Source: an uncultured Bacilli bacterium
GTDB taxonomy: Bacteria > Bacillota_I > Bacilli_A > RF39 > UBA660
Reading direction: 5' to 3'
Assembly: GCA_944350345.1 (NCBI GenBank)
Contig: CALVOP010000004.1
Span: 12,190 to 76,189, forward strand
Length of the DNA: 64,000 nucleotides
A program made the position numbers. Numbering within the stretch: the first letter of the stretch is position 1; each line of letters starts with the position of its first letter. This document shows, piece by piece, positions 56,001-62,000 of the stretch.

Positions 56001-59000
56001 CTCTGAGCCACTTTACCACTTATAAATATTCCTATTAATACTATTCCAATCAATACAAGTATGACTAATATTAGTGTTGATAACCACTTTAAAATTTTGT
56101 TAATAGCTTGTAAAAATTTATTTCGTTTTTTTGACATGTTATTCACCTTCATAACTATATTTATTTCCTAAAACCACTATTTTTCCAGAAAAACTTTTTC
56201 CTTGATTATCATTTTGATCACTATTTGTCTCTTTAAATTTAACTTTTACTGTACATGTTTGAATATCACCCGAATTAATTATTCCATCACCAATTTCAGA
56301 AGATGTAGTAGGCATATTTAATTCATTTGTTATATTTACAACTTTATTGTACTTACTTTCTGGAACTTCTTTTCCATCTTTAGTAGCTACACACTCTATA
56401 GTATACACTAAATCATTATTTTTTATTTCGTTTTTTTCAATTTCCCAGTTTATTGAATAACTACCAGCTATGTTTTCTCCATCAGTAGTATTTCTAATCT
56501 CAAATATCATCTCGTCTTCCCAACCTGGTAATGCATCTTCTTTTACTATATCCTTTTTAGAATTGTAAACAAGAAGTAAATCGGCAGTTTCCAATTTAAC
56601 TTCTCCAGCATCTTCATTTCCACGTATTGTGGAAGTAAAAAATGAAAATGTTGTTCCAATAGTCATTATTACAAATGTACATAAAGACAAAGCAATTAAA
56701 ATGTATATTTTTTTATTTTTATTATTCTCTTTTTCCATGTCTATTCTCCTACTTTATATATTATCATTATTTTTACTTGACTTCAATATTTTTTAGGAAA
56801 TTGACATTATAAAAACGAAAAAAGTAGGATAACCTACTTTATATCATGTTTTTGTAACCAACTATGTGTTGTTTTATATTAGTTTCCAGTTGGCAAAGTT
56901 GTTGTTCCACCAGGATTTTCGTCATTGTAATAAACTGTTCCGCCTGTAATTTTACATGTTACAACTGCAGATGCAGATTTGCCTTGTTGTGTATTTTGAT
57001 TTTCGCCAGTTTCTTTGAATCTTATTGCAATTTTATATGTATCTGACCCATTGCTAGCTGTGATGTTTCCATTTACAACTTGTGTATTTGTTCCGATTGT
57101 AGTCCAACTTCCAGCTGAACTATCATCGGCACCATCAGCACCCACACGGAATTCCAAATCTGAAACATCACCTGTCTTATTGATTTCACATGTGTATGGA
57201 ACTGATACGCTTCCTGTTACAGTACCTGAAATTGTAAAACTTGCATCAGCGCTTTCCCATCCAGGTAATACATTTGTACCTGAAACTTGTGTTCCATTTA
57301 ATTGTAATGCACTGATAGATGCTGTAGTAATATTAGCGCTTGCTCCATCTCCACTGATTGTTGTTGAGAACCATGCAAATGTTGCCCCTACTATTGCTAC
57401 TAATAGTGTTGCAATTCCTATTACTGACAAGAATATTGTTTGTCCTTTGTTGTTTTCCATAGTTTGTTTACCTCCTTATCATATTAATCATATCAATTTT
57501 TAATGACTTTATCAAGTATAAAAAAAGTAGGCAAGCCTACTTAAGTTTTTGTAATCCAACTATGTGTTGTTTTATATTAATTTGGTCGAGTTGTTGTTCC
57601 ACCAGGATTAGCATTGTTATAGTAAACAGTTCCGCCAGTAATTTCACATGTTACTGTTGCTGTAGCAGATTTACCTTGTTGTGCATTTTGATCTTCACCA
57701 GTTTCTTTAAATCTAACAGCAATTTGGTATGTGTCTGAAGGATTACTAGCTGTGATATTTCCAGTTACAACTTCTGTATCTGTTCCGATTGCAGTCCAAG
57801 AACCACCAGTACTATCATCAGCACCATCAGCACTAACACGGAATTCTAAGTCAGTAACTTCGCCTTCTTTATTAATTTTACAACTATATGGAACTGATAC
57901 ATCACCACTTACAGTACCAGCTACAGTGAAATTTGCATCAGCACTTTCCCATCCTGGTAGTACATTTTCCCCTTCAACTTGAGTTCCGTTAAGAGTTAAT
58001 GCACTGATAGATGCAGTAGTAATATTAGCACTTGCTCCATCTCCATCGATTGTTGTTGAGAACCATGCAAATGTTGCTCCTACTATTGCTACTAATAATG
58101 TTGCAATTCCTATTACTGATAAGAATATTGTTTGTCCTTTGTTGTTATCCATAGTTCGTTTACCTCCTTTACAATAACAATAATATCAATTCTTACTAAT
58201 TTTATCAAGTCTTTTTTAATACTTTTTGTAAAAATTTTTACAAAGAAAAAAGTAGGAAATCCTACTTATTACTCTTTCATAACTTAACTATGTGTACTAG
58301 CTTATTCTGCTGTAGGCTCATCAGTTACACCTGTTGGATTACTTGAGTTATAGTAAACAGTTCCACCAGCTAATGCACAAGTTACAGTTGCAGTAGCAGT
58401 TTTATTTTGTTGTGTATTTTGGTCTGCACCTGTTTCTTTGAATCTTAACGCAATGTTATATACATCTTCAGAGTTACTTGCAGTTATAGATCCAGTAACT
58501 ATTTGAGTACTTGTACCAACAGTTTTCCATGCTCCACCAGTACTAGCTCCAGCATCAGCAGCACCAACACGGTATTCTAAATCAGTTAATGTATTATTTG
58601 ATGTAATTGTACATGTATAAGGAACTTCTACATCACCAGTTACAGTACCACTTATAGTAAATGTTGCATCGTTACTTTCCCAACCAGGTAATACGTTTGT
58701 ACCTGTAATAGTTGTTCCTTCTAAACTTAGTGCACTAACTTGAGCAGTAGTGATATTAGCACTTGCTCCATCTCCATCGATTGTTGTTGAGAACCATGCA
58801 AATGTTGCTCCTACTATTGCTACTAATAATGTTGCAATTCCTATTACTGATAAGAATATTGTTTGTCCTTTGTTGTTATCCATAGTTTGTTTACCTCCTT
58901 TACAATAACAATAATATCAATTCTTATTAATTTTATCAAGTCTTTTTTTATATTTTTTTGTAAAAAAAGTTAAGCATTTTTAATTGCTTAACTTATTCCT

Positions 59001-62000
59001 GTAACTTGCAATTTAGTATAAAACATTTTACCTTTATCAATGTCTTGATTAGTATTCGTATTTTTAAATTCAAACGTTAAAACATAATTATGTTCTTCTC
59101 CTGGATTTATTTCTACGTTTGATAACATTGCTTCTCCCTCATTTACAGGATATGGAACTCTTCCACTATTTAAACTTACAATTTCAGTGCCATTTCTAGT
59201 TATTCCGTAGTATAGTCTGTTTTCCCATGTAAAGTCATTATATATATCAGTCCATATTATGTTATATACTAATTTTTGATCTGTGTCATTTTTAATTGTA
59301 AACTTTTTTGTACCTTTCCATCCTGGTGCTAAAGTGTTGCTCACTAGTTTGTCGTCGTCTATGAATGATAAGTCATATGTTTTTCCTGTTTCTAATTTTA
59401 TTTCATTTAAATTTCCAGGATTTACTATGAATTCGTAATCAACTAAATTTGTATCTGCTTTTCCATCTCCGTCTGTGTCTATGTTAACGTCTGCACTTCC
59501 ATTACCATCTAGGTCTATGTTGATATCTGGTATTCCATCTCCGTCTATATCTATGTTAATATCTGCTTTTCCATCATTGTTTGTATCACAGTTTAAATCA
59601 CATACTCCGTCTCCGTCTGTATCTTGATTTATTAAGTTTTTATCTGGTTTTCCATCTCCGTCTGTATCTATGTTAACATCTGGTTTTCCATCTTTATCAT
59701 AGTCTATGTTGATGTCTGCTTTGAAATCGTTGTCTGTGTCTATATTTGTATCTGGTTTTCCGTCTCCATCTACATCTATGTTGACATCTGGCAAGCCGTC
59801 TCCATCTGTATCTATGTTAATGTCTGCTAATCCGTCTCCGTCTAAATCAATGTTGATATCTGCTTTTCCATCTCCGTCTAAATCCACATTATTATCTGGA
59901 AAATTGTCTCCATTCATATCGCAGTTTAAATCACATACTCCATCCCCATCTGTATCTTGATTTATTAGGTTTTTATCTGGCTTTCCATCTCCATCTGTAT
60001 CTAAGTTGAATATTGGTTCATCATAATTTGTTCCGTATGAGATATTAACATCTGGTTTTCCGTCTCCATTTGTGTCGATGTTTGTATCTGGTTTTCCGTC
60101 CCCGTCTGTGTCTATATTAATAATTGGTTTACCTTCACCTAATGAATCTATGTTGATATCTGGCTTTCCATCCCCGTTTGTATCAATGTTTACATCTACT
60201 ATGCCGTCTCCATCTAAATCAATATTTACATCAGGAAGTCCATCTCCATCTGTATCACAATTAATATCACATATTCCATCGCCATTTGTATCTTGATTTA
60301 TTAGGTTTTTATCTGGTTTTCCGTCTCCATCTGTATCTACGTTAAAAAATGCACGGTATGTATGAGCATAATGAATGTTTAAATCTGGCAAACCGTCTTT
60401 ACCTGTATCACAACTTAAGTCACATACTCCATCTCCATCTAAGTCGATATTCATATCAGGCCAGCCATCTCCATCTCTGTCAGCATTCATATTTTTGTTT
60501 TTTAAGTCTAAATAGTTTAAAACTGAATATGTAGCTGCAACAGAGGCTCCAGCAAAAAGACAAAGAAACAACACTATTAAAAGTATGTTTTTTATTTTGT
60601 TATTCTTTTTTGGCTGTTCAAAATACAATTTCTCTTTTTCTATAATTTCTCTTTGTTCATTGTAATCTGGTTTATTATCATTTAATTCACTCATAGTAAT
60701 ACTCCTTTATTTTCTATTTAAATAATAACATAACCGTTTTATTTAATCAATATAGATTTTACTTATAAATCCCACATAGTCGTCAATTTTCCATCTTCTT
60801 TATATACTGAATCCATTAACATAATATAGCCATATAGATTGCTGTCAACAACTCCTCTATATCTTTCGAATGTTTCAACATTTACTCCAGCGGCTAAGCT
60901 TTCTGCAATATAGATATTATTTTCGTCAAGTCCTACAATTATTGCTATGTGGCCGTCCCTTCCAATTAAATCTCCAACTTTTACTTTGCCAGAAGTCATT
61001 AGATCATAAGTTAATTCTACTCTTTCTCCTAAATCACATAAATCGTCATCTCTATATGTAAAGTCTCCTGCACCTGAATCTCCTACATCAAAGCCACCAT
61101 TGTATAATACCCATGATATAAAACCACTACAACTTAAACCATTCGGGTATTTTCTTCCACCAATAAATCCAGCTTCAGTTTGGTAATTCATCAACGGACA
61201 TCCCCAGATTGCTGGCCCTGCTTTTATTGCAGTTATTTCTTCTATTTTATCTGTGCTTAAATAAAGGCCTTTATGGTAATATCTTCCCTCTCCGTCTGCT
61301 TTTGGTCTACCTGGGTGATTATTTAATCTACCATTTTCAAAAAAGTATGGTATTTTAACTGGTAAACTCATCGTTAAGAATCTAGCTGCTTCTACTACAC
61401 TTGCTCTTGTTGCATACCCTACACTATTTACTCGATCAAATAGTATTTCATCTAATAAGTGTGCTTCTTCTTCAGTGTATTGTTGACAAGTTAATTTGGC
61501 TTTTTTATTGTTTATAACTTGTTTTATTATTAAGTTTGTTACAATTAATTCTACTTTAGCTTCGTTACCATCTACCGATGTAATTATAATGTTTGTGTTT
61601 CCTTCTTTTTTTGCATATACAGTTTCATTTTCTATGTATGCAATATTTTCATCTTCTACTTTATATGTTAGTGTTTTGTCTATATCTCCAAGTGTTATTA
61701 ATTCTACTTCCAATTTTTCTTTTCCATTTACTGGTAAATATATTTTTTCTTTTGTTGGTGTGATAGATATAATTTTATTTATTTCTACTTTTTTAGTTGT
61801 TGTTTTATTTATTATTTTGTTTCCTCTTTTTAAATAAATTTTATAGTTTCCAGCATCTACTTCAAATTTACATTTGTTATTTTTAGATAATACCCAGTTA
61901 TTTTCATCAAGTTTTTCTTCAGTTATTTGACAATAAATTTTATCATTAAAAAATGATTTGATATTTATAGTAAGTTCAACTCTGTTATTTTCATTTATTT

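Follow-up and report, generated by a model that had tools for sequence, protein, structure and literature searches.

The Locus and Its Genes

A 64,000-nucleotide stretch of DNA from an uncultured Bacilli bacterium of the RF39 lineage (GenBank assembly GCA_944350345.1, contig CALVOP010000004.1, positions 12,190 to 76,189; hereafter the window) contains six co-oriented genes on its minus strand. The first (58988..60694) encodes a stalked TasA-like protein of 568 amino acids (hereafter big568) and is followed by genes for four smaller TasA-like paralogs and, last, for a SipW-type signal peptidase. The original prediction had placed a 568-residue protein at the head of this locus and the open reading frame (ORF) proves to be real: it was recovered by ORF calling, an AAAGGAG Shine-Dalgarno sequence (60702-60708) lies 7 nt before its ATG and was graded a strong ribosome-binding site, and full-length homologs of 491-1401 residues exist. 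No protein name was found for big568 or its relatives in the databases and literature searched.

Three of the small paralogs, of 191-193 residues, share 71-83% identity with one another. p193a (58302..58883), a presumed major subunit, is 71% identical to both p191 and p193b, has a signal peptide ending in GATFAWFS, and is modeled by AlphaFold2 (AF2) as a β-sandwich with a predicted local distance difference test score (pLDDT) of 84. p191 (57577..58152) and p193b (56879..57460) are 83% identical; the former matches PF12389 (Peptidase_M73, camelysin/TasA) with E=3.4e-4 and 20.9 bits against a cut-off of 22.5, and the latter with E=0.025. The fourth paralog, p199 (56139..56738), is divergent (25% identical to the other three, E=1e-13); it is a presumed minor subunit and, on sequence comparison, the closest relative of the big568 core. 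Its gene shares a 14-nt overlap with that of the peptidase (55520..56152), a 210-residue signal peptidase I of the archaeal/endoplasmic reticulum type that matches TIGR02228 (2.4e-29; 102 bits, cut-off 51.9) and, under the cut-off of that equivalog, the SipW model NF046067 (6.8e-28).

The C-Terminal Core

The C-terminal part of big568 (aa 418-568; 58991..59443, minus strand) is a predicted TasA-like β-sandwich. In an AF2 model of the whole protein, built on 38 homologs and with a mean pLDDT of 83, this core has nine strands at pLDDT 80-95. It is 31% identical to p199 (BLAST, E=4e-11) and retains the family motifs PGW and FKxT..Q..GK. Direct BLAST comparison with the three major paralogs is marginal (E 0.008-0.7); a hidden Markov model (HMM) built from 75 of the family's members aligns to aa 429-565 of big568 at E=3e-26. 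The p199 and HMM matches bear out the earlier proposal that this domain is homologous to the small paralogs.

How does this family relate to TasA? A word-indexed search with p199 returned five near-identical proteins only, and an exhaustive profile search, which found relatives in 3562 clusters, was needed to reveal the family. PF12389 is matched at E≤0.01 by 35 of 75 relatives (best 1.4e-10). Among the window proteins it has no match in big568, p191 falls just under the cut-off, and p193b and p199 score about E=0.03; their link to PF12389 is thus transitive, because the relatives match while the window proteins fall below the cut-off. When the big568 model was searched against the PDB with Foldseek, TasA ranked first (5of1_B, E=2.3e-4; 5of1_A, E=3.9e-4; probability 1.0), a superposition considered further below. 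TasA was not reached by sequence, either by phmmer with big568 or by a profile of the small-paralog family run against PDB sequences. Judged mainly on sequence profiles and context rather than on fold, the family is a divergent branch of the TasA superfamily (TasA/camelysin), since the profile and fold links come together with a SipW-type peptidase and with signal peptides ending in GATFAWF. The same three lines (PF12389 in the relatives, TIGR02228 in the peptidase and 5of1 as top fold match) uphold the TasA-like label of the original prediction.

The Repeat Array

Between the N-terminal helix and the core, motif counting finds 26 twelve-residue units of the Dx[DN]xDG type (aa 72-417; 59444..60481, minus strand), with a DNA period of 36 nt by Tandem Repeats Finder. 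They run head-to-tail with the consensus D-T-D-G-D-G-K-P-D-[IVL]-N-I, in which D1 is kept in 26/26 units, D9 and N11 in 25/26 each, and D5 and G6 in 24/26 each; position 8 is Pro, position 12 is Ile, Leu, Val or Cys, and positions 10 and 12 remain hydrophobic. A super-repeat of about 112 residues, marked by NLINQDTDGDGVCDLNCD, is present in three copies. This regularity is far beyond chance, and the conserved columns are invariant across the 38 homologs, which are only about 40% identical. About 20 degenerate repeats had been predicted; the repeats stand, and their number becomes 26 canonical units. In the AF2 model the array has pLDDT 85-95 and no helices, and each unit forms β-bridges at its positions 10 and 12. 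Four of the 26 units carry Cys at positions 8 and 12 (C-x3-C, as C-D-x-N-C; aa 91/95, 142/146, 254/258, and 365/369). Across the 38 homologs C142 and C146 never vary, while conservation of C365 and C369 is at least 90%, and such pairs could be disulfides or an extra metal site punctuating the rod.

To which class do these units belong? They had been described as resembling thrombospondin type 3 (TSP3) or OmpA-like calcium-binding loops. The TSP3 motif, DxDxDGxxDxxD, is acidic at position 12 and includes a framework of Cys. The big568 units contain D1, D3, D5, G6, and D9, then Asn at position 11 in 25/26 and Ile, Leu, Val or Cys at position 12, and so depart from that definition. The Pfam model TSP_3 (PF02412) matched neither the whole protein (E≤0.1) nor isolated repeat segments (E≤10), and a TSP_3 domain is precomputed in none of 120 homologs among the matches listed. 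Neither a thrombospondin nor a COMP chain appeared in the Foldseek top 50 for the big568 model, and a profile of the repeat unit retrieved nothing from TSP chains; its best PDB sequence matches were EF-hand loops of polcalcin (IDTDGDGFIDFN, E=0.009), which agree near residue-for-residue. With the TSP_3 model unmatched, no TSP or COMP fold match and EF-hand loops nearest, the TSP3/OmpA-like assignment is not sustained. The units also depart from true EF-hands, in that position 12 is hydrophobic, the modeled array lacks helices, and no EF-hand Pfam model matched.

RTX (repeats-in-toxin) β-rolls are built from nonapeptide GGxGxDxUx repeats. The period here is 12 residues, not 9, and Pfam scans gave no RTX/HemolysinCabind match. 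Neither the TSP3 nor the RTX profile is matched by these repeats. Isolated repeat segments at E≤10 gave no EF-hand, dockerin or RTX match, only faint FG-GAP loop matches. With the whole protein, Pfam and NCBIfam returned MSCRAMM SD-repeat regions, SGP, and Ntox24, which were rejected as composition-driven and far under their cut-offs.

The Dx[DN]xDG calcium loop recurs in a dozen or more folds, EF-hands, dockerins, and TSP3 among them (PMC3123361), and by their motif the big568 units belong to this broad class. Like the loops of those three families they have D1-x-D3-x-D5-G6 with position 9 acidic, and some share Cys pairs with TSP3. They differ in having no flanking helices, Ile or Leu at position 12 in place of a Glu or Asp ligand, and Pro at position 8, while the strict 12-residue head-to-tail tandem sets the array apart from TSP3 and from the 9-residue RTX β-roll.

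The same 12-residue module occurs in other proteins of these bacteria (P0002, P0006, P0011, P0017, P0027, and P0061), where its partners are MucBP, cadherin-like, Listeria-Bacteroides repeat, RCC1-like or multi-transmembrane domains, and it gave 1239 matches among 8000 scored candidates. By this sequence distribution, the unit is an unannotated repeat family, apparently serving these bacteria as a widely reused surface spacer.

The N-Terminus and Colinearity with the Small Paralogs

big568 opens with a predicted cytoplasmic extension (aa 1-36; 60587..60694, minus strand), rich in Lys and Glu and ending in KKNNKIKN. Such an n-region is present in all 76 distinct relatives, with a median length of 35 residues (range 21-97) against 7 in the small paralogs. 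Within it E21 is kept in at least 90% of sequences in the 38-homolog alignment, and AF2 places a helix at residues 11-25. A hydrophobic helix follows (aa 37-59; 60518..60586, minus strand), either a signal-anchor or the H-region of a SipW-type signal peptide; it is a 23-residue uncharged stretch, ILLIVLFLCLFAGASVAATYSVL, modeled by AF2 as part of a helix spanning residues 31-66. The KKNNKIKN cluster ahead of it predicts an N-in topology. In its order of parts, from N-terminal stretch through single helix and repeats to C-terminal domain, the protein agrees with the original prediction. Near its end lies AATYS (aa 53-57; 60524..60538, minus strand), which the motif count and close relatives mark as a candidate SipW cleavage site and the counterpart of GATFA in the paralogs.

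An HMM of paralog N-termini did not separate those of the big proteins from unrelated transmembrane ORFs, and a motif count was therefore adopted. The strict motif is found in 22/76 big proteins (29%), 80/108 small paralogs, and 13/216 control transmembrane ORFs (6%), and in the big proteins always 2-4 residues short of the end of the hydrophobic stretch. Most big relatives are without a clean small-residue cleavage site, many having bulky residues there, and in 8/76 a lipobox-like LIGCC replaces the motif; big568 itself has no lipobox L-x-[AGS]-C at the signal peptide end. At loci L036, L038-L042, L044, L053, and L063 the helix-end motif is exchanged for a lipobox-like LL(I/L)IGCC[ATV]S after an unusually long n-region of about 40 residues, and the orthologs of this L036-type subgroup would be lipid-anchored if the site is functional.

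An HMM of the small paralogs aligns with the big proteins as two pieces in colinear order, a signal peptide/N-terminal helix piece in 53/86 and a core/C-terminus piece in 80/86. HMM positions ~2-30 (signal peptide to G-a-T-F-A) correspond to the N-terminal helix and positions ~32-66 onward to the C-terminal core. The first piece scores a weak 1.6 bits in big568 (HMM positions 2-29) and up to 18.6 bits (E=8e-6) among relatives, some of which show it running through the donor-strand region of the paralogs (L025, GVAFSAMISGDNSNLNIDTDGDG; L023, LGATYSYIRIYVGG). Past the helix, L021, L023, and L025 still align to that region as far as HMM position 48, with E about 1e-3. The donor strand of TasA comprises mature residues 28-38 (PMC9674648). 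The paralog signal peptides end in GATFAWFS or GTTFSFFT; big568 reads AATYSVLNY, with 346 residues of repeats before the core. From the two-piece colinear match, big568 is best described as a TasA-like precursor with a repeat array inserted at the TasA donor-strand position. What is new here is this apparent colinearity, which puts the array between the signal peptide motif and the core.

The three major paralogs have, at aa ~34-41, a single T-I-(D/S)-G-D-G-A-S unit directly after WFST, at the exact site occupied by the array in big568. This unit could be the seed from which the array expanded, or a donor-strand Ca2+ site like that in AbpX. A separate candidate, DYEFIV (aa 419-424), which MAFFT aligned with TFSFFT of the paralogs, was considered as a retained donor strand and rejected, because the family HMM match begins at aa 429 and the AF2 model is unconfident at residues 419-428.

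Conservation Across Gut Bacteria

A genome scan gave 549 confirmed matches, and the loci analysis covers the best 78 of these. All 78 come from uncultured gut metagenome-assembled genomes (MAGs) of humans, mice, rabbits, chickens, and ruminants, labeled Bacilli, Firmicutes, Tenericutes, Mycoplasma sp. CAG or Clostridium sp. CAG:524, with a few binned under different names (Muribaculaceae, for example); the nearest, at 96% identity, is a “Bacilli bacterium” bin. The repeat-plus-core protein is present in 74 of the 78, and its repeat number varies widely (regular-expression counts of 10-81). Where 6 kb is covered on both sides of the big gene or genes (29 complete loci), small paralogs lie within that distance in 25 and SipW in 21, and every other gene family is limited to 13 loci or fewer. 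One or more small subunits, the stalked subunit and SipW form a gene trio that recurs in about 75 loci.

Five loci (L009, L010, L011, L013, and L029) have two big genes in tandem, in the order long (585-1122 aa), short (540-568 aa), then small paralogs, and no SipW was detected in these five within the sequence covered. The peptidases beside the big genes measure 204-450 residues across related loci; many have a C-terminal extension of 60-240 residues, which the 210-residue enzyme of the window is without.

A Stalked, Cell-Proximal Anchor?

Two things distinguish big568 from the small paralogs: the cytoplasmic extension of about 35 residues and the roughly 26 calcium-loop units between the signal/donor-strand region and the core. 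What role would such a protein play? In Bacillus subtilis, every TasA subunit passes its N-terminal strand on to its successor, with TapA as a possible source of the initial strand (PMC9674648). In Clostridium perfringens, oligomers of BsaA are membrane-anchored, and in the model proposed for them the oligomer's strand is taken up by an incoming monomer that its signal peptide still retains, SipW cutting afterwards (PMC11580942). Since monomers in that model are held until cleavage, a poorly cleaved subunit would be a natural anchor. We favor, with moderate confidence, a reading in which big568 sits close to the cell as the stalked subunit that anchors or terminates SipW-dependent TasA-superfamily fibers, these being assembled by putative donor-strand exchange. 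Sec would insert the protein with its N-terminus in the cytoplasm, the array would fold with Ca2+ into a regular rod, and the rod would keep the C-terminal core off the membrane. The core would then join, by donor-strand complementation, a fiber of the three near-identical 191-193-residue subunits and perhaps p199. The N-terminus would stay in the membrane, or its release would lag behind that of the small-subunit N-termini, and the distance from membrane to fiber would be set by repeat number. That every big protein has the long n-region, that eight have LIGCC, and that most relatives are without a clean cleavage site argues that the N-terminus stays at the membrane.

Several observations weigh against this anchor model. 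The end of the big568 helix, AATYS|V, has the motif and position of the SipW-type signal peptides of the paralogs (GATFA|W), and its two closest relatives (94-96% identical) read ATFA through Y56F and S57A. The hydrophobic stretch is not longer than that of the small paralogs (23 versus 28 residues), and SipW is the next gene, starting at most 400 bp after the big gene, in 19/29 complete loci, as for a substrate. The helix-end motif, with ATFA in close relatives and SipW mostly as next gene, fits a cleaved and released substrate, and the predicted label “membrane-anchored”, like the nucleator role predicted with it, is unproven because SipW may cleave big568 at AATYS. Binding of Ca2+ by the units is likely from motif resemblance only. 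As for the fold, the match to 5of1 is weak despite its top rank (TM-score 0.33, root-mean-square deviation 10 Å), and Foldseek with the p193a model did not retrieve TasA, giving generic sandwiches only (CBM4, FimG, and Ena2A, all E>1e-3), of which FimG is a pilin of the donor-strand type.

These points lead to an alternative that we consider possible, at clearly lower probability: big568 would be a processed stalked subunit, cut by SipW after AATYS, and a fiber tip, long spacer or cross-linker rather than a membrane anchor. The freed strand (VLNYLDLK...) would plug a neighboring subunit, with the core of the same chain about 350 residues away, and in a scheme of growth from the base the tip would be the first subunit. 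Such processing would account for the enrichment of a cleavage-type motif, always rightly positioned, at the helix end over control transmembrane ORFs, for the substitutions that restore canonical ATFA in the relatives, for the donor-strand-like segment after the helix in L021, L023, and L025, and for the SipW gene directly downstream; both TasA and TapA are SipW substrates (PMC9674648). It accords poorly with a strict motif confined to 22/76 big proteins, many others having bulky residues there, with the lipobox-like site that stands in its place in eight relatives, and with a long, ever-present cytoplasmic n-region, which is unexpected in a peptide to be discarded.

Somewhat more tentatively still, the array may be a Ca2+-set molecular ruler that separates the donor strand of a fiber subunit from its acceptor core. 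Once cleaved by SipW, such a subunit would be bivalent over long distances, with its strand inserted in one partner and its groove filled by another, 350 to more than 1200 residues apart, and could space, branch or cross-link TasA-type fibers or determine how far they lie from the membrane; the number of repeats would evolve fast from one gut lineage to another. In the literature searched, no description was found of a TasA-superfamily subunit whose donor strand and core are separated in this manner.

Could big568 instead act outside the fibers altogether? The rod might display the β-sandwich as a ligand-binding or adhesin module of a stand-alone surface protein, its linkage to the other genes reflecting shared SipW secretion only. 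Fusion of the 12-residue module to unrelated surface domains (MucBP, cadherin-like, Listeria-Bacteroides repeat, and RCC1-like) implies that it acts as a general spacer, and one relative (P0035, locus L001) has SipW as its sole such neighbor within 8 kb. We regard a stand-alone role as unlikely, in view of a terminal domain that is a true paralog of the fiber subunits with PGW and FKxT..Q..GK retained, and of the small paralogs near the big gene in 25/29 complete loci. Least probable is that the array is an acidic, disordered, low-complexity linker without structure or metal binding and regular only through DNA slippage: its highly variable repeat number (10-81 in proteins of 491-1401 aa) and lack of a Pfam match would suit such a linker, but positions 1, 5, 6, 9, and 11 are kept in at least 24/26 units with 10 and 12 hydrophobic, the same columns hold across homologs about 40% identical, the AF2 model is confident with periodic β-bridges, and the unit sequence is that of functional Ca2+ loops (PMC3123361).

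Comparison with Known Systems

One close comparison is with tapA-sipW-tasA of B. subtilis (PDB 5OF1; PMC9674648; TapA, PMC10151520), which likewise combines a SipW-type peptidase of its own, jelly-roll subunits with G-x-T-aromatic-A at the end of the signal peptide, and an operon accessory protein thought to start or anchor the fiber. The systems differ in that B. subtilis has one TasA and the window four small paralogs, and sequence similarity to TasA is reached only through PF12389 in relatives. TapA is a proposed strand donor and has neither TasA paralogy nor a repeat stalk, whereas big568 is a member of the family with a 346-residue array. No TapA-type family turned up in Pfam and NCBIfam scans, in which no TapA sequence was compared, and any likeness of big568 to TapA would be one of role only, at most.

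The C. perfringens operon sipW-bsaA-bsaB-bsaC resembles the present locus in its Bacillota origin and in pairing SipW with several remote TasA homologs, but no stalked subunit is described there. Its BsaA subunits are locked by an N-E-K isopeptide triad (PMC11580942), and BsaC is a von Willebrand A protein, of which there is none in the window. Haloarchaeal Tafi loci encode TafF, TafF1, and TafF2, proposed membrane anchors with one transmembrane helix and a jelly-roll domain (PMC12337348). They are likened to big568 by their description, the anchor role itself being proposed, and Tafi pili differ in being archaeal, dependent on twin-arginine translocation, and without a repeat stalk.

At AbpX loci, subunits linked through S-layer homology (SLH) domains or LPXTG are predicted to join fibers by strand complementation (10.64898/2026.01.04.697558). 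These loci, which also encode tip proteins, combine major, minor, and anchoring subunits of the TasA superfamily and involve Ca2+ in assembly, as is proposed for the locus described here. In AbpX, Ca2+ sits at the donor-strand/groove interface and anchoring is by SLH or LPXTG; in big568 the presumed Ca2+ sites lie in an N-terminal rod and the tether would be a membrane helix. Unlike big568, none of the TafF and AbpX anchors has a calcium-loop array at the donor-strand junction.

Expression Signals and Flanking Genes

A hairpin scan found a terminator-like hairpin with a T-run over the big568 stop codon (58967..58994, minus strand) and similar hairpins 3′ of each major paralog gene (58250-58267, 57525-57542, and 56821-56840); six such hairpins were found against 2.4 expected. 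Those of the major paralogs, in the minus-strand intergenic regions between 56821 and 58994, are near-identical (AAGTAGG...CCTACTT plus a T-run). Each major paralog gene is also preceded by a promoter-like TTGATA-17-TAT[TG]AT site with a TG extension (extended -10), by consensus matches only. Because hairpins and promoter-like sites flank them, the genes are possibly expressed at different levels, and their arrangement suggests duplicated expression cassettes with separate dosing of the major subunits. On the plus strand, the array gives rise to two spurious S/P-rich ORFs of 84 residues (59706..59960), the reverse complement of the repeats, and 74 residues (60072..60296, from ORF calling). Antisense ORFs of this type had been foreseen, and both are mirror images of the D/G-rich repeats.

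A gene 68 bp upstream of big568 (60763-62118, minus strand) encodes a 451-residue protein with an N-terminal transmembrane segment, a Big_2/HL_N-beta domain, and a weakly NlpC/P60- or CHAP-like C-terminus. From these domains it could be a wall hydrolase that opens peptidoglycan for fiber passage; the gene is not conserved beside the big gene in the other related loci. Downstream are two large surface proteins on the minus strand: one of 730 residues (53234-55426) with a pair of SH3_3 domains, a glucosaminidase region resembling SagB, a cadherin-like domain, and a type I dockerin, the last being notable in a reduced lineage of gut Bacilli, and one of 498 residues (51722-53218) with cadherin-like and BatD-like domains.

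An array of clustered regularly interspaced short palindromic repeats (CRISPR) lies at 62174-63427, with about 19 units of a 36-nt repeat (GTATTAGTATAGCAAAAATTCTTAGGGTACCAAAAC, plus strand) and 30-nt spacers, the first four of which are two alternating sequences, a duplicated spacer pair. A 171-residue ORF (63450-63965, minus strand) without a Pfam match adjoins it, and no cas gene was identified near the array within the examined part of the window.

Implications for Fiber Attachment

TasA-superfamily fibers are now seen as a cross-domain way to build biofilm matrices, and how such fibers start, stop, and attach to the cell is poorly known, even in Bacillus. The locus described here is a compact system of three kinds of gene, conserved in hundreds of uncultured gut Bacilli (MAGs of the “Tenericutes” or Mycoplasma sp. 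CAG type), in which big568 probably tethers biofilm-type fibers to the cell. Its accessory subunit is an obvious paralog of the fiber subunits with a modular, length-variable calcium-loop rod placed, as the alignments indicate, exactly at the donor-strand junction, and the choice between anchor, tip, and spacer thereby becomes directly testable. The system points to surface fibers as a colonization factor in a lineage without cultured representatives.

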